DNA of 64,000 nucleotides. It comes from Acidimicrobiales bacterium (GTDB taxonomy: Bacteria; Actinomycetota; Acidimicrobiia; Acidimicrobiales; CATQHL01). The stretch covers positions 448,509 to 512,508 of the forward strand of contig CBDEFI010000001.1 in NCBI GenBank assembly GCA_965237375.1, in the 5' to 3' direction. The notes beneath the pieces were generated by a model, which made no database searches, was not told the origin of the DNA, and saw nothing but the letters and a program-made list of their open reading frames with translations. This document shows, in pieces, positions 8,696 to 47,524 of this stretch. A program made the position numbers and the translations under genes. The first letter of the stretch is position 1; every line of letters starts with the position of its first letter.

Positions 8696-10272
8696 ACTCT
8701 CCCCCGCAGCGCGTCCATCCCAGCGGTGTCGCCCGGCGCAGGGGCCGCACCGCCGCTCATCCCGGCGACGGCCTCGGCCAGCGACCCGATGTCGCCATGG
8801 TCGGCCACATCCAGTTCTCCGGTGATCCTGCCGTGCGCCATCACCACCGCCCGGTCAGCCAACTCGAACACCTCCGGAATCTCCGTGCAGTAGGCCAGAA
8901 TGGCCCCGCCGTGATCCAGGAAGGTACGGAGGATACGGTAGATCTCCACCTTGCTCCCCACGTCCACCCCGCGCGTCGGTTCCTCGAGGAGCAGAACGTC
9001 CGGGCGTTCGGCGAGCGCCGAGGCGATGGCGACCTTCTGCTGGTTCCCGCCGCTCAGATCGCCGATGGGCTGGGCCACCGAGGCCGCCCGCACACGGAAC
9101 TCCTGCCTGTACCGCTCGCCGAGGCGCGCCATCGTCCGGCGCTTCAGCAGGCCGCCGGCGCCGGCGATACGCCCCCTGCCCAGGCGGGCGACCAGACTCC
9201 GGCCCACGTCGAAATCACCGAAGAGGCTCTCGCCCCGATCAGCGGGGAGGTAGCTGGTGGGCTGGGAAGCCCCCCGGGGCAGGGACGACTCGCCGGTCAC
9301 CTCCTCCAGTCCGGCCAGGGAGCGGACCAGTTCCCGGCCCCCCGATCCCTCCACGCCCACCACGGCAACGATCTCCCGGACGCGCACCGTCAGCTCCCCG
9401 ACCTGGAAGGATCCGCCGTCGTGGCGCCACCCCCTGACGGTCAGGGCCGGTCCGTCCCCCGGACCCCCGGCCCTTGACCGTCGCGAGACCGACCCCGGCG
9501 CCTGCACCGCCTCCCCCATCACCATCTCGCGGGCCAGCCGTTCCTCGCTGAGGGCCTCCCCGGCCAGATCGGCGCCGACCCTGCCGTCGCGCACGACGAT
9601 GACGCGGTCGGCCACGTGGGCAAGTTCGTTCAGCCGGTGGGACACCAGGATCACGATGTTCCCCGCGTCGCTCAACGCCCGCATCTGGGAGAACAACTCG
9701 GCCGACTCCTCCTCGGTCAGCGCCGAGTTGGGCTCGTCGAACAGAAAGATCTGCGCGTCGACCGCATGAGCCAGGGCGCGGGCGATCTCCGTGAACTGCC
9801 GCACGACGAGGGAACACTCCCCCAACTCCCGGTCGGCGTCGTGGGTGATCCCGAGGCTGCGGAGGATGTCGTAGTGGACAGGTCCGGGAACGGGGCGGCG
9901 TGCGAGACCATTCCCTCGCCTGCCGACGAGCAGGTTCTCCGCCACCGTGAGGTCGGGGAACAGCATGGCCTCCTGGTGCACCACCGGCACACGCGCCTCG
10001 GTGCGCGCCGGGGACCACGGAACGCCGCCCAGCATCATCTCCCCGGAGTCGGGCTCCTCCTCGCCGGAGATCATCCGCACCAGCGTGCTCTTGCCCGCCC
10101 CGTTGGGGCCGGCCACTCCCAGGAACTCCCCGCCGCTGATGTCGAGCGTGACGCCGGCGAGTGCCCGTGTGGGACCGTAGGCCTTCTGTAGGTCGCGCAC
10201 CGTGAGGCGCAGCCCCGACTCGGGGTGTTCCGCATGGGAAGCTTCCGCGCGGGGACGCTCCGCAACCGTCAT
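8692..10272 (-). CDS. ABC transporter ATP-binding protein, tandem-ATPase (CUT2 sugar-type)
   Basis: The real start is MTVAERP.. inside the 857-aa track ORF, with an ATGA overlap on the permease stop. First Walker A is GPNGAGKST; the second NBD carries LSGGNQQKV. The upstream 331 codons of the track ORF overlap the permease gene out of frame. Confidence 0.85.
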   Translation of the reverse strand: MTVAERPRAEASHAEHPESGLRLTVRDLQKAYGPTRALAGVTLDISGGEFLGVAGPNGAGKSTLVRMISGEEEPDSGEMMLGGVPWSPARTEARVPVVHQEAMLFPDLTVAENLLVGRRGNGLARRPVPGPVHYDILRSLGITHDADRELGECSLVVRQFTEIARALAHAVDAQIFLFDEPNSALTEEESAELFSQMRALSDAGNIVILVSHRLNELAHVADRVIVVRDGRVGADLAGEALSEERLAREMVMGEAVQAPGSVSRRSRAGGPGDGPALTVRGWRHDGGSFQVGELTVRVREIVAVVGVEGSGGRELVRSLAGLEEVTGESSLPRGASQPTSYLPADRGESLFGDFDVGRSLVARLGRGRIAGAGGLLKRRTMARLGERYRQEFRVRAASVAQPIGDLSGGNQQKVAIASALAERPDVLLLEEPTRGVDVGSKVEIYRILRTFLDHGGAILAYCTEIPEVFELADRAVVMAHGRITGELDVADHGDIGSLAEAVAGMSGGAAPAPGDTAGMDALRGRV

Positions 10273-31041: not shown

Positions 31042-31048
31042 TCCGCCA

Positions 31049-34000
31049 TTACTGCTCGGGTCGGCAATAGCCGGGTGGTCCTGCCGGGGTTCCTGTCTGA
31101 TAGATCCAGTCGAGATCGGCGTCGGAATCCTCGTACTCCCGCACGACCACCGTGTACGGCCCCCACGCGCGGACGCTGAAGTCGAACACGGTGGGAGGAT
31201 CGACAGGCAGTTCGGTGATCACGCGAGAGCCGTCGTGCGCATAGACACTGCTGTACGAGTCAGGTGAGGCATCCGACGCTCCGCCCCTCTCCCCATCCAC
31301 CTCGATCACATAGAACGGATGATCGAGCCGTACCCGGTAACGATCGATCCCGCCCGGATCATCGACCTCATGGACCTGCCCCGGTTCGAGCGGTGTGGCC
31401 AAGTCCCAGGGGTCGACGTAGTCGTCGCCGAGTTGTGTGACCTCGAGCGTGTAGCTCTCCGGCCCCTCGAAGCGGCGCCCCCTACCCACCAGGACCCAAT
31501 AGTCGCCTGTGCGGGTTGCCTCCCAGATGCCCGGCTTCAGAAGAGCGCAGCCGCTCTCGGTCAGAACGGCAAGGCTAGGAGAATCCTCGGAAGCGCTGTG
31601 CACCGTGAACTCATAGGTCTCTCCCTCAACCAGAGGCAGCTGGAAATAGTCACTGTCGCCGCCGTAGTCGATCCCTCCGGTAATCGTCGTGCTGCCCGGG
31701 CATCCCTCGCCAGGAGTCTCACTCTCGCACACCGGATCCGGCGACTCCGGAGTGGGCAGCAGGTGAGCCTGTCCCCGCGAACCGCCGTAGTCATCCTGCA
31801 CATCCAACCGTTCAACGGTCAAGCTGTAGTCGCCGCTGGAATCAGGGCTTCCAACCGAGATGAACCACACCCCGTCCACCGGCGTGGTCAGGAATCCTGC
31901 CTGGCCATATGCCAGCGTCGCGACCCGATCGCGCACGTCTTCAGTGCCCTCGAAGAACTGCACATCGTACCTAGTCCCATGGTACGACCTCGCTAGGCCT
32001 ACCTGCCATATCTCGCCCGACTTGACGCTGAGCCGGAATACATCCCGGTCGTCCACATAGTCGATGACGCCCAGTTGTGCCTCCCCCGGAACCAGTACGG
32101 AGGCCTGTGCGAGATCGTTTCCGTGATCGTCAGACTCGGCGACACTAAGGGTGAGTTCGTATTCGGCTGGCGCCCGGTAGGTCTGGTACGAGTAGATCCG
32201 TGGGGACAATCTGATCCCGAATTCCCCGCTCTCCGCGGCGGTCCATGCAAGATGCCCCTCCCAGCAATCCTCGCGCAGTGCGTGATCCTGATCGGGCCCA
32301 TAGATCTGCATACAACCCCATCGCTCATTCGGGGACCTCACGAGCCACGTCTGCCCTTCAGTGGCCTCGACAACAAACCAGTCAACATCGTTCCGCGAGT
32401 TCAGAGAACCGGCAATGACATCGCTGGCGGAAACCGGCGAGGCTCCCGACCGGAGATCAGAGAAATCGTCCGCCGTCAGGATCGCAATCTCGAACCCGTA
32501 GGCGAACGGCTCCAGGAATGGGCTCTCCCGACCCCGCGTTACCTGAATGTGATACGTCCCGGTCGTCGTCGGCACGTAGTCGATAGAGTCGTCCCACTTG
32601 CGCCACCGGTCCAGCACGGTATCCCCATCCCACAAGCTGATCGTGGCGTCCACGTCCCAACTCGGCGGGTTGTAAGACGCCGCCTGGTCATAGGGTCTGA
32701 TCCGGTACTTCACGCCCCTCTCCAACTGGAGAGCGAACCAGTCGCTGTCCAGGAAGTACCCGACGTGCCCCTCCACCAGAGCCTGCTGGATGCCTTGCTC
32801 CACCCCTGATCGAGCGCGCTTCTCGGCCAACTCCGCCGCCCTCGCCGGGAGTGCCTCCGGGTCGAACGTCACCTCCGCCGCCTCGCCGGGCGAGTCGCCG
32901 TAGTCATCCACAACTATCTCAGTCACGGTGTACCCCAGCTCATAAGCGAAGGGGGCCGCCCACTTCCCGGATATCCGTATCCAGTATGTGCCGGGACTCG
33001 GCACAGTCCACAGCCCGCTACCCAGGCTCGCCCACTGCTGGCCATAGTAGGGAAAACCGCTGCTGAGAGCAGGCACATCACCGCTCTCGTCGAAGACAGT
33101 GATGTTGAAGAATCCATGTCCTGACTGGCCCGAAGCGATGCTGTATATGAGCTCCGGGACGGCTTCGAAGGCGAACCAGTCAGAATCCTGATCGGTGACC
33201 GAGCCTCTCACCGTCTCGGCGACTTCGATCGGCGACGCGGTCGCACGATCGTCCCCGTGGTCAACCTCCTCGTTGGCGACAAGACGGAAACGATAGGACA
33301 GGATGCGCGGACGAATAGCCGAGAACATGAGATAGAGGACGCCGTTCTCGGCGATAGCGAGGCTTTGGCGCGCGTCGTCCTTCCAGCCGTCACCCACGAA
33401 GGAAGCGTGCAACGATCGTCCACCGTAGTAATCGTCGGCCGGCACGTAATTTCCGGAGTCTTCGTCGAGTACTTCGAACTCCACGTTGTACACCGTGCCG
33501 GCCGTGACTAGGAACTGGAACCAATCAGTATCCGTCAATGCGTCCAATTCCGCCTGAATCCAGTCACGGGATCGGATGAGAGTGGCGCCATCCGGAGCAT
33601 CGGAGTGATCATCCGCCGGCCTCCGGCTGACTGCGATGACGTACTCGGTGGGATAATGCCTGTCGTCTTCTGAACGCCGGTTACTTACCTTGATGAGGTG
33701 AGGGCCGCTTTGCCTGGCCTGCCATACGAGACGACCAATTCCGGGCGCGATCAACTCATCTCTCTCAAGGTCATACCAGTCGCCGTAGCTGACCTGGCTC
33801 TCTTCGCTGTAGAGAGCCACCTCTGGAAATGCTCGGTCCTCCTCAAGGGCATAGGCGTCTACGACGTAGCGTTCACCCTGAACCATGTCCACGTAGAACC
33901 AGTCCTCGTCGTGTGTGTAGTTGAGGCTGGCGGTCCGCTCCTGACCGGGCTGAAGCAAGGTCGCACCGACGGGGATATTCGAGTGGTCATCCACGAGTAT

Positions 34001-34906
34001 CTCGAACTTGAGGGTGTAGGTGTTCGGCAGCCCGTAAGAATTCGAACCCGCTTCAACGAGCGCGGCATATCGACCAGTCTCCTCCATATGCCAGGGACCC
34101 GGGTCGAAAACCCAGTCGCGGGAGGACGTGCCCCACTGAACGAGATCGGTCAGTTCGAACTCGTCGGCACTGCCGTCGCCATCCTCGTGAGCTGTGGTGA
34201 GCATGTACAGCCGGAAGGACACCCCGTAGGACTTCTCCGGCTCTCCCTCGATCCAGATCTTGAAGAGGTCGCCTGCCTGAGCATCGAAGACGAGCCAGTC
34301 CTTGTCACCCTCATAGTCGATCGCTCCGGTGTATTCCGTGGCAACCGCGAGATCGATTTCTGTGGCAGCGGACGGCTCATCCCCATGCTCGTCATCGATT
34401 CGGTTCACCGCGATCATGTACTCGCCGGTCGGATCGTACGTCGCACCCACAATGCGCAGGTAGTACGTCCTTTCTTCGGCGCCGCGCAGCAACGACCAGT
34501 GGGTTCTGAGCGAGTCGGGATCGGCTTCGGTGGCGATCTCTGCTCCGGTGGCGTCGTGGAGCGAGAGTTCGACGGCGACATCCCGGGAACTTCCGCCCAA
34601 CCTGCCGCTGACGATGATCCGGTAGTCCTGGCCTTCGTGGGCCTCGAAGCGGTACCAGTGGATCTCGTACAGATCGGCGAGTTGCGCAACATGCGATTCT
34701 CCGTCGACGACGAGGACCACTGCGTCGGTCGGTGGCCCCTCGGGGGTCGCGGCATCGGAGGTCTCAGCCACCGAACCGTCGTCCAGAACCACCAGAGCGG
34801 ACGACGACTCGGTGCCCGCGCCGCTCACCGCGCACCCGACCGGCAGGACCAGAGCAGCGAGCACGCCGCAGAACGCACGAAGCCCGGGGCGGTCCACTGT
34901 CGGCAT
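31049..34906 (-). CDS. giant secreted lipoprotein made of about ten PPC-like (pre-peptidase C-terminal type) repeat domains
   Basis: ATG 34906 gives MPTVDRPGLRAFCGVLAALVLPVGC|AVSG (lipobox). A recurring module begins (D)DHG/DDY.. and contains DxDW[FL]xFxxxxGxxYxI (DKDWLVF, DEDWFYV, DTDWFQF, DSDWFAF, DSDWFAL, DVDWFVV, DRDVFRL, DSDYFQL ..). No catalytic domain is recognisable. The 334 upstream codons of the track ORF run antisense through the RCC1 gene. Confidence 0.75.
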   Translation of the reverse strand: MPTVDRPGLRAFCGVLAALVLPVGCAVSGAGTESSSALVVLDDGSVAETSDAATPEGPPTDAVVLVVDGESHVAQLADLYEIHWYRFEAHEGQDYRIIVSGRLGGSSRDVAVELSLHDATGAEIATEADPDSLRTHWSLLRGAEERTYYLRIVGATYDPTGEYMIAVNRIDDEHGDEPSAATEIDLAVATEYTGAIDYEGDKDWLVFDAQAGDLFKIWIEGEPEKSYGVSFRLYMLTTAHEDGDGSADEFELTDLVQWGTSSRDWVFDPGPWHMEETGRYAALVEAGSNSYGLPNTYTLKFEILVDDHSNIPVGATLLQPGQERTASLNYTHDEDWFYVDMVQGERYVVDAYALEEDRAFPEVALYSEESQVSYGDWYDLERDELIAPGIGRLVWQARQSGPHLIKVSNRRSEDDRHYPTEYVIAVSRRPADDHSDAPDGATLIRSRDWIQAELDALTDTDWFQFLVTAGTVYNVEFEVLDEDSGNYVPADDYYGGRSLHASFVGDGWKDDARQSLAIAENGVLYLMFSAIRPRILSYRFRLVANEEVDHGDDRATASPIEVAETVRGSVTDQDSDWFAFEAVPELIYSIASGQSGHGFFNITVFDESGDVPALSSGFPYYGQQWASLGSGLWTVPSPGTYWIRISGKWAAPFAYELGYTVTEIVVDDYGDSPGEAAEVTFDPEALPARAAELAEKRARSGVEQGIQQALVEGHVGYFLDSDWFALQLERGVKYRIRPYDQAASYNPPSWDVDATISLWDGDTVLDRWRKWDDSIDYVPTTTGTYHIQVTRGRESPFLEPFAYGFEIAILTADDFSDLRSGASPVSASDVIAGSLNSRNDVDWFVVEATEGQTWLVRSPNERWGCMQIYGPDQDHALREDCWEGHLAWTAAESGEFGIRLSPRIYSYQTYRAPAEYELTLSVAESDDHGNDLAQASVLVPGEAQLGVIDYVDDRDVFRLSVKSGEIWQVGLARSYHGTRYDVQFFEGTEDVRDRVATLAYGQAGFLTTPVDGVWFISVGSPDSSGDYSLTVERLDVQDDYGGSRGQAHLLPTPESPDPVCESETPGEGCPGSTTITGGIDYGGDSDYFQLPLVEGETYEFTVHSASEDSPSLAVLTESGCALLKPGIWEATRTGDYWVLVGRGRRFEGPESYTLEVTQLGDDYVDPWDLATPLEPGQVHEVDDPGGIDRYRVRLDHPFYVIEVDGERGGASDASPDSYSSVYAHDGSRVITELPVDPPTVFDFSVRAWGPYTVVVREYEDSDADLDWIYQTGTPAGPPGYCRPEQ

Positions 34907-35168
34907 GGAACCCACCCCCCTGCAGGCGCAAGAATCGGCCCCGGATCCGGCCGCCCGCATCAACTCCGGATCCGATGCCACCCAGACTGTAACGCCGGCA
35001 CGCTCCGGAGTCCGATTCGCGCGCATGCCGACGCAGCCCGGATCGCCCGGCAGGCAAGGGGTTGACGTGCCAAGGTGGTGCCGCCGCAGAGCCACGGGCG
35101 CTACGGTCGAGTCGAAGCTGGCGGGATCCCGACGAGTGGCGTGACCGGGACGGATAGGGGGATGCGCA

Positions 35169-38084
35169 GTGCACCGACTGTTCATCGCCGTCCTGGCCCT
35201 TGTCATCACGGCGACTGCATGTTCAGGCACGCAGGAAGGGGCGACGCCGACTGCGACCCGAGCCGGCTCGGGCACAGCCGCGACCGCGGCGCCGGACAGC
35301 CCGCCCGGTTCCCCCGACGGCGAGCGCGCCGACGCTCCGGATAGCGGTCCCGCCGACGATGGCGCAGAGGCCGTCCCGCCCGGACAATCCAATGGTGCTG
35401 CGGCGGCCACCCTGGCCGAACAAACCGACGAGAGCACAGAGACCGCCCAGCCCGAACAACCCGACGACGGCACAGAGACCGCCGAGCCCGAACAACCCGA
35501 CGCCCGCGCAGAGACCGCGCAGCCCGAGCCGCCCGACGGCGGCACCGAGACCGCGCAGCCCGAGCCGCCCACCGAGGTCGTCGCAGAGGTGGCGTCGCCA
35601 GCGGGCCCGCTCGACGCCGTAACCGCTGGCGATGGCTTCTCCTGCCGGCTGCGTGTCGACGGCACCGCGGAATGCTGGGGACGCAACGAAGACGGGCAGC
35701 TGCAGGCACCGGGCGGGGAATTCACGACGCTGGCCAGCGGTCTGTCGCACTCCTGCGGCGTGCGTACCGATGGCACGGCCGCCTGCTGGGGTGGCGACGA
35801 GTACGGGCAACTGCAGGCGCCGGGCGGGCAGTTCGCTGCTGTGGCTGCCGGCAGCGGCCATTCGTGCGGGCTGCAAACAGACGGCTTCGTCGCCTGCTGG
35901 GGCGCCAACTGGGACGGTCAGGCAGAGGCGCCGGCTGGGAGTTTCGTGTCCCTGGCCGCTGGGTTGTCGCACTCGTGCGGGGTGCGCACCGACGGCACCG
36001 TCACCTGCTGGGGCAGCAACGCCTGGGGACAGGTCGACGCGCCGACCGGGGAGTTCGTCGCCGTGGCCACCGGCCTGGAGCATTCGTGCGGACTGCGCAC
36101 CGACGACACCGTCGCCTGCTGGGGCAGCAACGCGTGGGGACAGGTCGACGCGCCGACCGGGGAGTTCGTCGCTGTGGCCGCCGGCCAGCGGCATTCGTGC
36201 GGACTCCGCACCGACGGCACGCTCGCCTGCTGGGGGGACAACGCCTGGGGACAGGTCGACGCGCCGGACGGGGAGTTCGTGGGCGTGGCGACCGGCCTGG
36301 AGCATTCGTGCGGGGCGCGCACCGACGACAGCGTCGTCTGCTGGGGCCTCCTCCCGGTCCTCGAGTCGCCGGACGGTGTGCGTTCCGACGAAGCCGCAGG
36401 GGAGCGATCCGGCAGCAGTGTCCCTGAGGCGGACCCATCCGCGGGGCCGTTCAGTGCGGTGGCCGTCGGGGAGCAGCACGTCTGCGCTCTACGTACCAAC
36501 GGCACCGTCGCCTGCTGGGACCTCCGACCGGTCGTGGAGGCGCCCGACGGCGTGCTGGTGGCGCGTTGGGCCGACGCCGCGGAGGCCGACGGCGATCCGT
36601 TCGTCGCCATAACCGCCGGCCGCTTGCATTCGTGCGGGTTACGCGCCAGCGGTAGTGTCCGCTGCTGGGGGATAAACGAGAGCGGACGGTCCGACCCGCC
36701 GGCCGGGGAGTTCACATCTGTGGGCGCGGGCACCAACCACACGTGCGGAGTGCGTACCGACGGCACGCTCGCCTGCTGGGGCTGGTACATGGGGGAGAAG
36801 CCGGATTCCCCGGGTGATCGGTTCAGCATGGTGGACGTTGGTCAGCACTCGTGCGCCTTGCGCATCGACAGCGCCATCGTCTGCTGGGGAAGCAACTCAA
36901 GTGGCGAGAACGATGCGCCGGACGGTCCGTTCGCCGCCGTGGCAGCTGGCGTGCTCTACACCTGCGGGTTGCGCACTGACGGCACTGTCGACTGCTGGGG
37001 GCGGGACTCGGGGTCCGGCGTGTCGGAGTCCCCGCCCGGGAGATTCACCGCGATCGCCGCGGGCGCTTCTCACGCCTGCGGGCTGCGCCCCCAAGGCACC
37101 GTCGACTGCTGGGGCGCCAACTACGACGGCCGGGCAGCGCCGCCCAGTGGTCGGTTCATCGCCGTGGATGCCGGCGAGGATTTCTCGTGCGGGGTGCGCA
37201 CCGGTGGCGCCCTGGTGTGCTGGGGGCTGTCGCAACCCGTGGGAACAGCCGACGGCGCACAGCCCGAGGCTGCCGGCCGTGCACCCGGTGAGACCGGCCC
37301 GTTCACCTCCGTGGCACCCGGAGGGTCGCATTGGTGCGGATTGCGCTCCGGTGGCACCGTCACCTGCTGGGGCGGCAACCGCGTTGGTCAAGCCGATGCG
37401 CCGGGCGGTCGGTTCGTCAGCGTGGTGGCCGGCTGGTATCACTCGTGCGGATTGCGTGTCGAGGGCACCGTCGAATGCTGGGGCGACAACGCCTGGGGAC
37501 AGCTCGATGCCCCGGACGAGCATTTCACCACCATTGCCTCGGGGGGCGGACACACGTGTGGGTTGCGCACTGACGGCGCCGCCACCTGCTGGGGGTACAA
37601 CGACGACGGGCAAGCGGACGCGCCCGACGGGCGATTCATCGATGTGGACGGCGGCGATCAGCATTCATGTGGTGTGCGCGCCGACGGCACAATCGACTGC
37701 TGGGGCGACAGCGAATTCGGCGAGGCCGACCCTCCCGACGGACGGTTCACTTCCATCGTCGCCGCAAGCCTGCACTCCTGCGGATTGCGTGCCGAAGGCA
37801 CAATCGACTGCTGGGGCTACAGCGACGGGCGGACCGATCCGCCGGACGGGCGGTTCGTTGCCGTCGTCGCCGGCCGTGGATACACCTGTGCCTTCCGGGC
37901 AGACGGCACCGCCGAATGCTGGGGGCTCAACTACGAGGGGCAGACCGATGTGCCCGACGGGCTGTTCACCGCGCTCTTCCCCGGCGGTACGCATTCGTGC
38001 GGATTGCGTACCGACGGCACCGTCGAATGCTGGGGACAGATGGCCGTCATACCAACACCGGACGGCGTGGAGGAGGTCTGTTAG
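35169..38084 (+). CDS. RCC1-repeat (beta-propeller) lipoprotein, 21 blades
   Basis: MHRLFIAVLALVITATAC|SG is a lipobox, followed by an acidic TETAQPEQPD-type linker. Then come 21 copies of HSCG[LV]R.DGT..CWG.N..GQ.DAP.G.F..V..G. Confidence 0.8.
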   Translation: MHRLFIAVLALVITATACSGTQEGATPTATRAGSGTAATAAPDSPPGSPDGERADAPDSGPADDGAEAVPPGQSNGAAAATLAEQTDESTETAQPEQPDDGTETAEPEQPDARAETAQPEPPDGGTETAQPEPPTEVVAEVASPAGPLDAVTAGDGFSCRLRVDGTAECWGRNEDGQLQAPGGEFTTLASGLSHSCGVRTDGTAACWGGDEYGQLQAPGGQFAAVAAGSGHSCGLQTDGFVACWGANWDGQAEAPAGSFVSLAAGLSHSCGVRTDGTVTCWGSNAWGQVDAPTGEFVAVATGLEHSCGLRTDDTVACWGSNAWGQVDAPTGEFVAVAAGQRHSCGLRTDGTLACWGDNAWGQVDAPDGEFVGVATGLEHSCGARTDDSVVCWGLLPVLESPDGVRSDEAAGERSGSSVPEADPSAGPFSAVAVGEQHVCALRTNGTVACWDLRPVVEAPDGVLVARWADAAEADGDPFVAITAGRLHSCGLRASGSVRCWGINESGRSDPPAGEFTSVGAGTNHTCGVRTDGTLACWGWYMGEKPDSPGDRFSMVDVGQHSCALRIDSAIVCWGSNSSGENDAPDGPFAAVAAGVLYTCGLRTDGTVDCWGRDSGSGVSESPPGRFTAIAAGASHACGLRPQGTVDCWGANYDGRAAPPSGRFIAVDAGEDFSCGVRTGGALVCWGLSQPVGTADGAQPEAAGRAPGETGPFTSVAPGGSHWCGLRSGGTVTCWGGNRVGQADAPGGRFVSVVAGWYHSCGLRVEGTVECWGDNAWGQLDAPDEHFTTIASGGGHTCGLRTDGAATCWGYNDDGQADAPDGRFIDVDGGDQHSCGVRADGTIDCWGDSEFGEADPPDGRFTSIVAASLHSCGLRAEGTIDCWGYSDGRTDPPDGRFVAVVAGRGYTCAFRADGTAECWGLNYEGQTDVPDGLFTALFPGGTHSCGLRTDGTVECWGQMAVIPTPDGVEEVC
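35620..36400 (+). repeat. seven strictly phased 111-bp tandem units inside the RCC1 gene
   Basis: The CTGCTGGGG core recurs at 35671, 35782, 35893, 36004, 36115, 36226 and 36337, exactly 111 bp apart. Units 4-6 are near-identical at the DNA level. Confidence 0.85.
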
Positions 38085-38100
38085 CCTGAATCCACCGATT

Positions 38101-38296
38101 CGGGCTGGTGGGGGGTGTGTTGGGGTGGTTTTTGGGGCGGTTGGGGTTGTGGGGTGTTGGTTGGGGTCGCCGGTGGCGGTGTGGGGCGCCGGTGAGGGGG
38201 CGCTGGGGTGGTTCGGGGCGCGTGGGGGCGTGTTGGGGCGCGTGGGGGCGCGCTAGGGCGCCGGGGCGGTGGGGCGGTGGGTGTTCTGGTGGGGGC
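38101..38296 (+). repeat. G-tract-rich non-coding segment inside IS copy A (between the IR and the transposase stop)
   Basis: About 16 runs of four or more G in under 200 nt (GGGGGG, GGGG, GGGGG ...), including the duplicated GGGGCGCGTGGGGGCG. The same segment is reverse-complemented at 47313-47508. Confidence 0.8.
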
Positions 38297-39664
38297 TCAG
38301 CAGAGTTGGGGTAGGGCGCGGATGTTGGTGAGGGTGGTGTGGAAGGTGGTTGCCCAGGGCCATCGGGCGGGGAGGCGCAGGACGGGGCGTCCGGCGTGGT
38401 TGACGAGGCGCCCGGGCACAGCGAGGAGTTGGTTGCGGACGGTTCGCCCGACGCGCAGACGTCCCGTGGGGTGGGTTTCGGCGAGTGTGGTGATCCAGCG
38501 GTAGAGGTTGTGGGCCAGTGCGGCGCAGGTCAGCCAGGCGGCGTTGGCGAAGAAGTTCCCCGACGGCAGGTGCGCCAGTCCGGTGCTCGCCTTGAGGTCG
38601 CGGATGGCGAGTTCGACGGTGGCGTGTTGGCGGTGATAGGCGTCGCCGGCGGCGCTGTTGAGGTCGTCTCGGTTGGTGACCAAGGCGTGGTGGCGCCAGT
38701 CGGGCCACAGCGCGGCCTGCGCGCTGTCGGTGAGGCGGGTGCGCCGCACGACGAGGCGCACGTCGCGGCGGTTGTCGCGCCCGCCGGCGATGATGGTGGT
38801 CTCCGCGACCTGCGCGTCGCCGCCGTCGCGGTAGGGGATGGGCTCCCAGTCGTCTTCGTCGATGGCACCAATGGCGGCTTTGACGTGGCCATACAGGGGG
38901 ATCGTGACCGACCAGCGCACCTTGGCGGCGTCGAGGCGGTCGATGAGTTCGTTGGACCAGAACCCCGAGTCGGCGCGCACGGTGAGTTGGCCCGCCGCGC
39001 CGGCGCGGCGGGCGCGGGCGACCGTCTCGGCGATGAAGTGCACGTTGCCTCTCTGGGAGGATCCCTTGCGCAGGCGGGTGTGCAGCGTCTCGCCGGTCTC
39101 GGCGCGGGTCGCGATGAGCGGGTGATAACCGAGCTGTTGGGTGTGCCCGTAGGCGGCGCCGGCTTTGGTCTTGGCGGACACCTCACAGATCGTCGAGTCC
39201 ACATCGATGGTCATCGGATCCTCCCCGGGGCCGCCGCCGGCGGCCCACGCCCGCGCCAGCGCCACACCTGCGGCTTTGTCCAACTGCCGGACGTGACCCC
39301 ACGTGAACGAACGCAGCAACGACCCCACCGTCGACGCCGCCGCCACCGAGAATCCCAACACCCGGCGCGTCGCCCCGGCGCGCAGACGATTCACGTGATC
39401 GATATGGGTGGCGCCGACCAGCATCGCCGCCACCAAACTCAACACCTTGCGCCCCGGAGACGCGCCGCCGACGCGGCCCCCCAAGCGCACCGTCTCATCA
39501 ACCAGAGACTCCAAACCCAACCGATCCATCAACGTCGCCGCCACCACCAGCCCCGCGTCGGCCACCAACGACTCGTCGTCGAAGGTCACCCCGAACCGGT
39601 CAATCTTGCGCGATACTCCACTCACAGGAAGTGCCTCCTCGATCTGGGCCGAAGCCGCTATCAC
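38297..39664 (-). CDS. IS1380-family DDE transposase
   Basis: 455 aa; ..KIDRFGVTFDDESLVADAGLVVAATLMDRLGLESLVDETVRLGG.. is typical of IS1380-family transposases. The amino-acid sequence is identical to copy B. Confidence 0.85.
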   Translation of the reverse strand: MIAASAQIEEALPVSGVSRKIDRFGVTFDDESLVADAGLVVAATLMDRLGLESLVDETVRLGGRVGGASPGRKVLSLVAAMLVGATHIDHVNRLRAGATRRVLGFSVAAASTVGSLLRSFTWGHVRQLDKAAGVALARAWAAGGGPGEDPMTIDVDSTICEVSAKTKAGAAYGHTQQLGYHPLIATRAETGETLHTRLRKGSSQRGNVHFIAETVARARRAGAAGQLTVRADSGFWSNELIDRLDAAKVRWSVTIPLYGHVKAAIGAIDEDDWEPIPYRDGGDAQVAETTIIAGGRDNRRDVRLVVRRTRLTDSAQAALWPDWRHHALVTNRDDLNSAAGDAYHRQHATVELAIRDLKASTGLAHLPSGNFFANAAWLTCAALAHNLYRWITTLAETHPTGRLRVGRTVRNQLLAVPGRLVNHAGRPVLRLPARWPWATTFHTTLTNIRALPQLC

Positions 39665-39843
39665 TACCGGCCATTCTCCCAGGTCAGCGAGGCACTTCCG
39701 CGCACCCCCACCCCCAACACACCCAACCCATCGGTGGATCCAGGGTTAGTCCGCGGGGTGCGGGAGCGGCGGTAGTAGCTTGCTCAGCGGTGGTGTGAAC
39801 CGCCGCCGGAGCTGCCGCCCTTCCTGCACGAACCCGACTCCGC

Positions 39844-43174: not shown

Positions 43175-43525
43175 ATGGCCGGCATCGTCGTGTACCACAA
43201 CCCTGGTTGAGGCAGTTCTCGCAGCACTCTCGAGTTGTTGCGGGAGCAGGACGTCGAGTTCGACGTCGTTCACTACCTCAAGGAACCTCCCAGCCGCGGC
43301 GACCTCGAAGGCCTACTGTCGCTGCTGCCCAACGAGCCGACAGACCTGGTACGGCGCGACAAGAACTTCAGCGATCTGGGGTTGAGCGACGAGGATGTCC
43401 GGAGCCCCGAACAGGTCGTGGACATCCTGGTGGCCCACCCGCGGCTCATGCAGCGCCCCGTGGTGGTGCGCGGCGAGCGTGCAGTCATCTCACGCCCCCC
43501 GAAAACCGTCCTGCAGTTGCTCTGA
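43175..43525 (+). CDS. ArsC-family (glutaredoxin-type arsenate-reductase-like) protein with in-frame TGA at the catalytic Cys position: candidate selenoprotein, or pseudogene
   Basis: Reads MAGIVVYHNPG-TGA(43208-43210)-GSSRSTLELLREQDVEFDVVHYLKEPPSR...HPRLMQRPVVV... in one frame, 116 codons. The track reports only the part after TTG 43235. Confidence 0.6.
43216..43246 (+). promoter_or_regulatory. SECIS-like stem-loop immediately downstream of the in-frame TGA
   Basis: An 11-bp stem pairs UUCUCGCAGCA (43216-43226) with UGUUGCGGGAG (43236-43246), with 8 Watson-Crick and 3 G-U pairs. The 9-nt loop is CUCUCGAGU, and the stem starts 5 nt after the UGA. Confidence 0.35.
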
Positions 43526-45863: not shown

Positions 45864-47524
45864 CCTGGATCCACCGATTTGGTGGGTGCGTTGAGGGTTG
45901 GGGGTCCGCGGAAGTGCCTCTCTGACCTGGGAGAATGGCCGGTAGTGATAGCGGCTTCGGCCCAGATCGAGGAGGCACTTCCTGTGAGTGGAGTATCGCG
46001 CAAGATTGACCGGTTCGGGGTGACCTTCGACGACGAGTCGTTGGTGGCCGACGCGGGGCTGGTGGTGGCGGCGACGTTGATGGATCGGTTGGGTTTGGAG
46101 TCTCTGGTTGATGAGACGGTGCGCTTGGGGGGCCGCGTCGGCGGCGCGTCTCCGGGGCGCAAGGTGTTGAGTTTGGTGGCGGCGATGCTGGTCGGCGCCA
46201 CCCATATCGATCACGTGAATCGTCTGCGCGCCGGGGCGACGCGCCGGGTGTTGGGATTCTCGGTGGCGGCGGCGTCGACGGTGGGGTCGTTGCTGCGTTC
46301 GTTCACGTGGGGTCACGTCCGGCAGTTGGACAAAGCCGCAGGTGTGGCGCTGGCGCGGGCGTGGGCCGCCGGCGGCGGCCCCGGGGAGGATCCGATGACC
46401 ATCGATGTGGACTCGACGATCTGTGAGGTGTCCGCCAAGACCAAAGCCGGCGCCGCCTACGGGCACACCCAACAGCTCGGTTATCACCCGCTCATCGCGA
46501 CCCGCGCCGAGACCGGCGAGACGCTGCACACCCGCCTGCGCAAGGGATCCTCCCAGAGAGGCAACGTGCACTTCATCGCCGAGACGGTCGCCCGCGCCCG
46601 CCGCGCCGGCGCGGCGGGCCAACTCACCGTGCGCGCCGACTCGGGGTTCTGGTCCAACGAACTCATCGACCGCCTCGACGCCGCCAAGGTGCGCTGGTCG
46701 GTCACGATCCCCCTGTATGGCCACGTCAAAGCCGCCATTGGTGCCATCGACGAAGACGACTGGGAGCCCATCCCCTACCGCGACGGCGGCGACGCGCAGG
46801 TCGCGGAGACCACCATCATCGCCGGCGGGCGCGACAACCGCCGCGACGTGCGCCTCGTCGTGCGGCGCACCCGCCTCACCGACAGCGCGCAGGCCGCGCT
46901 GTGGCCCGACTGGCGCCACCACGCCTTGGTCACCAACCGAGACGACCTCAACAGCGCCGCCGGCGACGCCTATCACCGCCAACACGCCACCGTCGAACTC
47001 GCCATCCGCGACCTCAAGGCGAGCACCGGACTGGCGCACCTGCCGTCGGGGAACTTCTTCGCCAACGCCGCCTGGCTGACCTGCGCCGCACTGGCCCACA
47101 ACCTCTACCGCTGGATCACCACACTCGCCGAAACCCACCCCACGGGACGTCTGCGCGTCGGGCGAACCGTCCGCAACCAACTCCTCGCTGTGCCCGGGCG
47201 CCTCGTCAACCACGCCGGACGCCCCGTCCTGCGCCTCCCCGCCCGATGGCCCTGGGCAACCACCTTCCACACCACCCTCACCAACATCCGCGCCCTACCC
47301 CAACTCTGCTGAGCCCCCACCAGAACACCCACCGCCCCACCGCCCCGGCGCCCTAGCGCGCCCCCACGCGCCCCAACACGCCCCCACGCGCCCCGAACCA
47401 CCCCAGCGCCCCCTCACCGGCGCCCCACACCGCCACCGGCGACCCCAACCAACACCCCACAACCCCAACCGCCCCAAAAACCACCCCAACACACCCCCCA
47501 CCAGCCCGAATCGGTGGATTCAGG
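45864..47524 (+). mobile_element. IS1380-family insertion sequence, copy B (1,661 bp), inverted relative to copy A
   Basis: Same IRs as copy A. Flanked by the 5-bp direct repeat CTTAG (45859-45863 and 47525-47529). All six-frame translations match copy A except in about 60 bp next to the transposase-proximal end. Confidence 0.85.
45945..47312 (+). CDS. IS1380-family DDE transposase (identical to copy A product)
   Basis: Same GTG-initiated 455-aa product as 38297..39664. The track ORF extends to TTG 45879 only because of substitutions in the subterminal region. Confidence 0.85.
   Translation: MIAASAQIEEALPVSGVSRKIDRFGVTFDDESLVADAGLVVAATLMDRLGLESLVDETVRLGGRVGGASPGRKVLSLVAAMLVGATHIDHVNRLRAGATRRVLGFSVAAASTVGSLLRSFTWGHVRQLDKAAGVALARAWAAGGGPGEDPMTIDVDSTICEVSAKTKAGAAYGHTQQLGYHPLIATRAETGETLHTRLRKGSSQRGNVHFIAETVARARRAGAAGQLTVRADSGFWSNELIDRLDAAKVRWSVTIPLYGHVKAAIGAIDEDDWEPIPYRDGGDAQVAETTIIAGGRDNRRDVRLVVRRTRLTDSAQAALWPDWRHHALVTNRDDLNSAAGDAYHRQHATVELAIRDLKASTGLAHLPSGNFFANAAWLTCAALAHNLYRWITTLAETHPTGRLRVGRTVRNQLLAVPGRLVNHAGRPVLRLPARWPWATTFHTTLTNIRALPQLC

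Follow-up and report, generated by a model that had tools for sequence, protein, structure and literature searches.

The reading frame at 43175-43525 of the 64,000-nucleotide stretch of DNA analyzed here (the window) very probably encodes a 116-residue, R773-like reductase of the ArsC family, in which the nucleophile at position 12 is a selenocysteine (Sec) specified by an in-frame UGA. The UGA occupies the same codon in 35 of 35 TGA-carrying homologues, the sequence before and after it is under coding constraint, the catalytic ArsC residues are in place, Sec and Cys versions of the protein occur as pairs, and a downstream hairpin covaries specifically in the homologues with a UGA (Sec forms). 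These observations support the preliminary description in treating the locus as a selenoprotein gene rather than as a pseudogene or a fragment. Taken together, they point to Sec, rather than another amino acid, as the residue inserted at the UGA, as far as this can be judged from nucleotide sequences.

The frame comprises 116 codons from ATG 43175, with the UGA as codon 12, and is followed by the stop codon TGA 43523-43525. It translates as MAGIVVYHNPG*GSSRSTLELLREQDVEFDVV...RPPKTVLQLL*, and the motif around the UGA is YHNPG-U-GSS-R, i.e., UxxS. The limits given in the preliminary description (start at ATG 43175, TGA at 43208-43210, stop at 43525, 116 codons) are reproduced exactly. Its remark that the ORF track held only a fragment initiated at TTG 43235 also agrees with the output of the ORF lister, which reports a 96-aa product from this TTG, located entirely after the TGA; the public gene call (P0001, 95 aa) likewise covers only the part after the TGA. 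The window has a G+C content of 69%, and TGA terminates 25 of its 36 high-GC3 ORFs as well as the present gene. Since TGA is therefore an ordinary stop codon here, the genetic code is not reassigned. A scan of the 64-kb window for further TGA-interrupted ORFs showing coding signal before and after the TGA gave no credible case; its one candidate, at 9475, was rejected as a Pro/Arg-rich wrong-frame artefact. The features of the locus are collected in Table 1.

Table 1. Coordinates of the ArsC-family gene, its predicted RNA elements and the two flanking insertion sequence (IS) copies in the window
Feature	Position	Strand	Basis or description
Probable Sec-containing ArsC-family reductase, full CDS	43175..43525	+	Reading frame, family matches, alignment with R773 ArsC
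In-frame UGA, putative selenocysteine codon	43208..43210	+	Aligns with catalytic Cys12 of R773 ArsC
Hairpin 1, earlier SECIS candidate	43215..43247	+	Predicted fold
Hairpin 2, candidate SelB-binding hairpin	43250..43267	+	Covariation specific to Sec forms
IS copy	38085-39744	-	477-aa DDE_Tnp_1_4/DDE_Tnp_1 transposase, target duplication GTTAG
IS copy	45864-47524	+	477-aa DDE_Tnp_1_4/DDE_Tnp_1 transposase, target duplication CTTAG

Family searches were carried out with Cys substituted at codon 12. The substituted protein matches the Pfam family ArsC, PF03960 (8.5e-13, 48.9 bits against a cut-off of 24), and marginally passes the NCBIfam equivalog arsC, arsenate reductase (glutaredoxin), TIGR00014 (108.8 bits against 106.05). 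The structures of R773 ArsC (1JZW, 1I9D) align end to end over residues 1-116 with E = 3e-20. His8, Cys/Sec12, Ser15, Arg60, Arg94 and Arg107 are invariant in a 15-sequence alignment and match the residues that bear these numbers in 1JZW and 1I9D. The nucleophile position 12 of the HNPxCxxS motif is thus occupied here by UGA instead of TGY, in agreement with the earlier assignment of the UGA to the catalytic-Cys position of a glutaredoxin-type ArsC; the later family blocks, previously judged intact, are indeed kept in the alignment. In R773 ArsC the catalytic roles of Cys12 and of three arginines are established.

Several features nevertheless distinguish the present protein from its counterpart encoded on the E. 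coli plasmid. Apart from Sec in place of Cys12, it has 116 rather than 141 residues, the C-terminal extension being absent, and it lacks an ars operon context. No ars genes (arsR, arsB/acr3 etc.) lie beside the gene in any Sec-form locus, and no ars families occur among the 25 commonest families in 103 neighbor ORFs of these loci. Arsenate is suggested as the substrate by homology only; because of the lack of nearby ars operon genes and a TIGR00014 score barely over the cut-off, arsenate reduction is not established. The selenoprotein family NF041106 ('Arsenate reductase-like protein', UxxC) and the Spx/MgsR regulators belong to the same ArsC/Spx superfamily (PF03960) and share the same fold, but the motif found here is UxxS, in contrast to UxxC in NF041106 and to CxxC. 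NF041106 is absent among the NCBIfam matches at E <= 0.01, and the Spx models score far under their cut-offs.

The conservation of the UGA was followed in 13 genome loci from GTDB representatives, namely, sponge-associated Acidimicrobiia (Ca. Poriferisocius among them) and one MAG each from Thermoleophilia and Pseudomonadales, and in 80 further loci obtained by a metagenome scan that included soil metagenomes. TGA is present at the same codon in 13/13 genome relatives (53-78% identity). Over all fetched sequences, codon 12 is TGA in 35 cases, TGC in 53 and TGT in 4, and in all 35 TGA-carrying homologues, which are as little as 37.5% identical to each other, the TGA falls exactly at this codon. 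The homologue alignment proposed earlier as a search for Sec/Cys pairs therefore places 35 TGA and 57 TGC/TGT codons in one column. The scenario raised at that time, in which close relatives carry TGC and the hairpin is unconserved, did not materialize: the relatives carry TGA, and the hairpin at 43250-43267 shows compensatory conservation. In the protein databases, the nearest matches (65-99% identity) are without exception gene calls of 95-96 aa that begin after the TGA; full-length Cys forms (116-117 aa) reach at most 62% identity. Within the fetched set, Sec and Cys forms are interleaved, as illustrated by L033 (Sec) and L022 (Cys), which are 87% identical, and by the L084 group (Sec), which is about 80% identical to L085 (Cys). 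A UGA aligned with a redox-active Cys, together with the alternation of Sec and Cys within one family, is the classical signature of a selenoprotein.

Some additional features of these sequences were observed. In the close Cys/Sec pairs (L022 vs L033; L085 vs L084/L038/L060/L061), the pairing of hairpin 2 is decayed in the Cys versions, in which the Sec-specific pair of hairpin 1 is lost as well, Ala GCG being replaced by Glu GAG. This decay suggests recent switches from Sec to Cys or from Cys to Sec. Codon 13 (43211-43213) encodes Gly in 35/35 Sec forms (GGC 22, GGA 8, GGG 3, GGT 2), so that the base after the UGA is always G and the Sec forms read UGxS; in the Cys forms, codon 13 is mostly Ser (35/57). 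The constant Gly may stem from protein chemistry or from decoding context. With respect to annotation, the NCBI/ENA MAG calls P0001-P0008, P0035, P0060 and others, as well as loci L096-L099, are 95-96-aa fragments starting after the UGA, some of them named 'MAG: arsenate reductase', and database entries systematically lack the N-terminus with the active site. A JGI call of 114 aa (P0022) reads YHNQGWGKSR, with Trp at the Sec/Cys position, which reflects either a TGA translated under an alternative code by the gene caller or a true TGG variant.

The region before the UGA is particularly informative for the alternatives to a selenoprotein. In every Sec form the start codon, ATG and once GTG, is located 11 codons before the TGA, and the N-terminal peptide xxxx[VIL][YF]HNPG is kept, with synonymous variation of the Pro (CCA/CCC/CCG/CCT), Gly (GGT/GGC/GGA), Tyr (TAC/TAT) and Asn codons. 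This synonymous-only variation reflects purifying selection on translation through the TGA. It rules out a nonsense pseudogene as well as a start at TTG 43235, the two alternatives named in the preliminary description. A TGC-to-TGA nonsense mutation that killed an ordinary ArsC gene needs one base change, and gene callers do read the TGA as a stop. However, 35 homologues from several phyla share the TGA at identities as low as 37%, and these are not one recent clone; the frame is otherwise intact with its catalytic residues kept, the variation before the TGA is exclusively synonymous, and synteny is stable across the clade. The conservation of the UGA effectively refutes this explanation, which we regard as extremely improbable. 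It is very improbable, too, that the product is a shorter protein of 95-96 aa from TTG 43235, devoid of the active site and preceded by a 60-nt untranslated leader, as the ORF lister and the public annotation (P0001 and the 95-aa 'MAG: arsenate reductase' entries) have it. In the supposed leader, the ATG stays at a constant distance, and the codons turn over synonymously while still specifying the N-terminal beta-strand and the HNPx motif conserved in ArsC. The TTG itself is not conserved, the corresponding codon being CTC in L006-L010. Moreover, a protein without residues 1-20 would miss His8, position 12 and Ser15.

A somewhat larger, albeit still small, probability may be given to readthrough or recoding of the UGA without Sec, with Trp, Cys or Gly inserted by a suppressor or near-cognate tRNA, or with the hairpins stimulating readthrough. 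Such a process would accommodate the facts that the Sec machinery is only predicted for the genome, that hairpin 2 lies beyond the canonical SECIS spacing and that one JGI call (P0022) has W at this position. On the other hand, the UGA aligns precisely with the redox-active Cys, Sec and Cys alternate within the family, and the family is already catalogued as a selenoprotein. TGA is also the main stop codon in the window, and Trp or Gly in the place of the catalytic nucleophile would inactivate the enzyme. Insertion of Sec is thus the preferred reading of codon 12.

Bacterial Sec insertion relies on a stem-loop downstream of the UGA, and the bSECIS model specifies a loop of 3-9 nt with a G in its first two positions, a spacing of 16-37 nt and an energy <= -7.5 kcal/mol (PMC13188914). 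The candidate originally proposed for this role, hairpin 1, has the described form, with an 11-bp stem (43216-43226 with 43236-43246; 8 Watson-Crick and 3 G-U pairs) closing the 9-nt loop CUCUCGAGU. In the ViennaRNA fold the hairpin is longer and spans 43215-43228/43233-43247; here the stem has 14 bp, one U is bulged and the loop is CUCG. In these two versions, the loop begins 16-18 nt after the UGA. The 56-nt stretch folds with an MFE of -22.6 kcal/mol (z = -2.08), a value reached equally well by 8/200 shuffles. Spacing and energy are within the bSECIS model, but the first two loop bases are C and U. Consequently, the statement that the loop contains G/GU and fits a bacterial SECIS holds literally for the presence of G/GU and does not hold for a G among the first two loop bases.

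Hairpin 1 is furthermore poorly maintained among homologues. Consensus folding with RNAalifold, applied to 14, 29 and 33 codon-aligned Sec forms, yielded only hairpin 2 and omitted hairpin 1, and folding of the nearest relatives (L001-L009) gives z = -1.4 to +0.5. When the register is held fixed, the paired cells amount to 71.5% in the Sec forms vs 62% in the Cys forms, and columns 21-38 make up the only pair with clear Sec specificity. Over the 42 nt following the codon, the mean z is -1.23 for Sec forms vs -0.11 for Cys forms, with a Mann-Whitney p = 1e-5 that is only indicative because the sequences are phylogenetically related. Two genome loci have canonical-looking versions of hairpin 1: the Thermoleophilia locus (L011) with the loop CGUGC and a degenerate hairpin 2, and the Pseudomonadales locus (L013) with the loop GCGA and an intact hairpin 2 (-8.1 kcal/mol). 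The SECIS candidate at 43216-43246 is a real hairpin, but it is not conserved in register and has no G at the required loop positions; the conserved element is located at 43250-43267.

This element, hairpin 2, is GACGUCG-AGUU-CGACGUC, a 7-bp stem of -9.9 kcal/mol that overlaps codons 26-31 (DVEFDV). Among 29 distinct Sec forms, 99% of its cells are paired; three of the seven pairs change on both sides, giving 17 compensatory cells, and 0/500 shuffles perform as well. The paired variants include GAC..GUC, GAU..AUC, GGU..ACC, GGC..GCC and AAG..CUU, several of them accompanied by amino-acid changes. In contrast, the same columns of 54 Cys forms are 75% paired, which corresponds to the shuffle level, and exhibit no covariation. 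Constraint is also apparent at the codon level: Val27 is GTC in 29/29 and Glu28 is GAG in 29/29 Sec forms, whereas other conserved Val and Glu columns vary freely. Elsewhere in the window, the hairpin-2 core GTCGAGTTCGAC has only one-mismatch matches, which lie inside the two IS copies.

Like the canonical bacterial SECIS (E. coli fdhF type; Zhang and Gladyshev model, PMC13188914 Fig. 2), both hairpins are stem-loops within the coding sequence, 3' of the UGA, and each departs from it in a different way. Hairpin 1 has the appropriate spacing of 16-18 nt and energy, but fails the G rule and is not conserved. Hairpin 2 satisfies the loop, G and energy criteria, its loop AGUU following the N-G-[G/U]-N rule, but with a loop starting 46 nt after the UGA it exceeds the spacing range of 16-37 nt. 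The stretch of unpaired exterior bases that separates hairpin 2 from the UGA measures anywhere from 0 to 15 nt; no constant 'effective spacer' emerges, and a 'folded spacer' of simple, fixed geometry is not apparent. Hairpin 2 is a candidate SelB site, to which hairpin 1 may contribute. A more far-reaching reading, which is conceivable but on balance doubtful, is that the SECIS of the ArsC family is non-canonical, the SelB element being the distal GUCG-AGUU-CGAC, whose loop at 46 nt lies beyond the 16-37 nt rule, and hairpin 1 serving only as a foldable spacer; this would amount to a two-hairpin bSECIS class present in Actinomycetota, Pseudomonadota and soil lineages.

On the basis of these elements, a mechanism may be proposed. 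Translation would start at ATG 43175, and at the UGA a SelB-type factor carrying Sec-tRNA(Sec), recruited by the mRNA structure inside the downstream coding sequence, would insert Sec. The TGA at 43523 would terminate translation because no such structure follows it. In the folded protein, the Sec12 selenolate would take the role of the Cys12 thiolate of R773 ArsC, beside Arg60, Arg94 and Arg107, and would attack an oxyanion substrate, with regeneration by a partner of the thiol/glutaredoxin type.

Such a mechanism requires the Sec machinery, and the long-term upkeep of both the UGA and the hairpin suggests that selA/B/C/D are present in the genome. In the 64-kb window and the fetched loci, which amount to about 0.5 Mb and represent a small fraction of each genome, ARAGORN, run for tRNA-Sec, found no tRNA, and tblastn with approximate E. 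coli SelA and SelD queries gave no match to selA or selD. Rfam at gathering thresholds returned neither SECIS nor tRNA-Sec. According to a 2026 preprint, Actinomarina, another group of Acidimicrobiia, carries selA/B/C/D and about five selenoproteins per genome, which makes the use of Sec in Acidimicrobiia plausible.

The gene belongs to a conserved chromosomal block that comprises a luciferase-like protein, MBOAT, DUF459/GDSL, the putative Sec-containing ArsC, two oligopeptide-type ABC ATPases, MFS and SDR. As previously noted, it lies between two IS copies. These copies, of about 1.66 kb each, are in inverted orientation, 100% identical over 1632 nt and bounded by the terminal inverted repeats CCTGRATCCACCGAT. 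Neither the near-identical contig L015 nor the genome L014 (95% identical) has the copy at 45864, and their gene order is unchanged. A composite transposon was considered and rejected, given that each IS has its own 5-bp target duplication, that the 45864 copy is missing in relatives and that the order is syntenic. The separate target duplications and the relatives without the 45864 copy indicate recent independent insertions with no bearing on the ArsC gene; the reported position between the two copies is therefore correct, and its supposed relevance to the gene falls away with the independent insertions and the syntenic locus.

Several other features of the surroundings were recorded. An 8.7-kb segment (31045-39746), which includes the IS copy at 38085, is missing from L014 and looks like a strain-specific insertion. 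It contains a 1619-aa ORF on the minus strand (31049-35908) with one PPC domain, the DNA of which has a G+C content of 59-64% vs about 70%, and a 971-aa RCC1-repeat protein (35169-38084). At 37550-38044, a unit of 108-111 nt occurs five times in direct orientation; this array is the DNA counterpart of the RCC1_2 repeats in the 971-aa protein and is not non-coding. The sole Rfam match, to the actinobacterial sRNA Ms_IGR-7 (39626-39743, + strand), lies inside an IS end and is marginal (45.2 bits vs a cut-off of 45), so that the model may be capturing the IS terminus. In L096-L098, a BrxC/BrxD-like and SNF2-helicase cluster (BREX-type defence) and a Fic gene are found about 5-10 kb upstream of ArsC, near the conserved block, in the neighborhood where the window has the apparent strain-specific insertion.

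The Sargasso Sea metagenome yielded 14 sequences of a Sec-containing 'arsenate reductase' whose motif is UxxS (Zhang, Fomenko and Gladyshev 2005, PMC1088965), and a 2026 review lists a Sec arsenate reductase under TIGR00014, with MBT3519430.1 as an example (PMC13188914). The present protein resembles this Sec 'arsenate reductase' (TIGR00014/COG1393) in its family, in the position of Sec, in the UxxS motif (U-G-S-S here) and in the stem-loop that follows the UGA inside the ORF. Taking into account that the motif is exactly U-G-S-S, it is probably a further member of a selenoprotein family known since 2005. It differs from the published examples in its lineage, sponge-associated Acidimicrobiia, which is absent from PMC1088965 and PMC13188914, and in being represented in public records by a 95-aa fragment. 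Nothing specific on selenoproteins in sponge Acidimicrobiia or Poriferisocius was found in the literature. The hairpin shown in PMC1088965 is possibly, but not necessarily, the conserved distal one. The novelty is accordingly limited to the lineage and, possibly, to a non-canonical, deeply conserved distal hairpin, and for a specialist the surprise is modest because a Sec-containing ArsC has been known since 2005.

The significance of the gene lies first in annotation: the public entries for it and for dozens of its orthologues are 'arsenate reductase' fragments of 95-96 aa, and reading the UGA as Sec would restore a complete redox enzyme. The family also offers a clean natural experiment, in which Sec and Cys versions are up to 87% identical and the hairpin is maintained only with the UGA. 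Reviews mention 'distinct classes of bSECIS' without characterizing them, and hairpin 2, being farther from the UGA than in the consensus model, could help to define such classes. As for the organisms themselves, the sponge-associated Acidimicrobiia would be probable selenium users.
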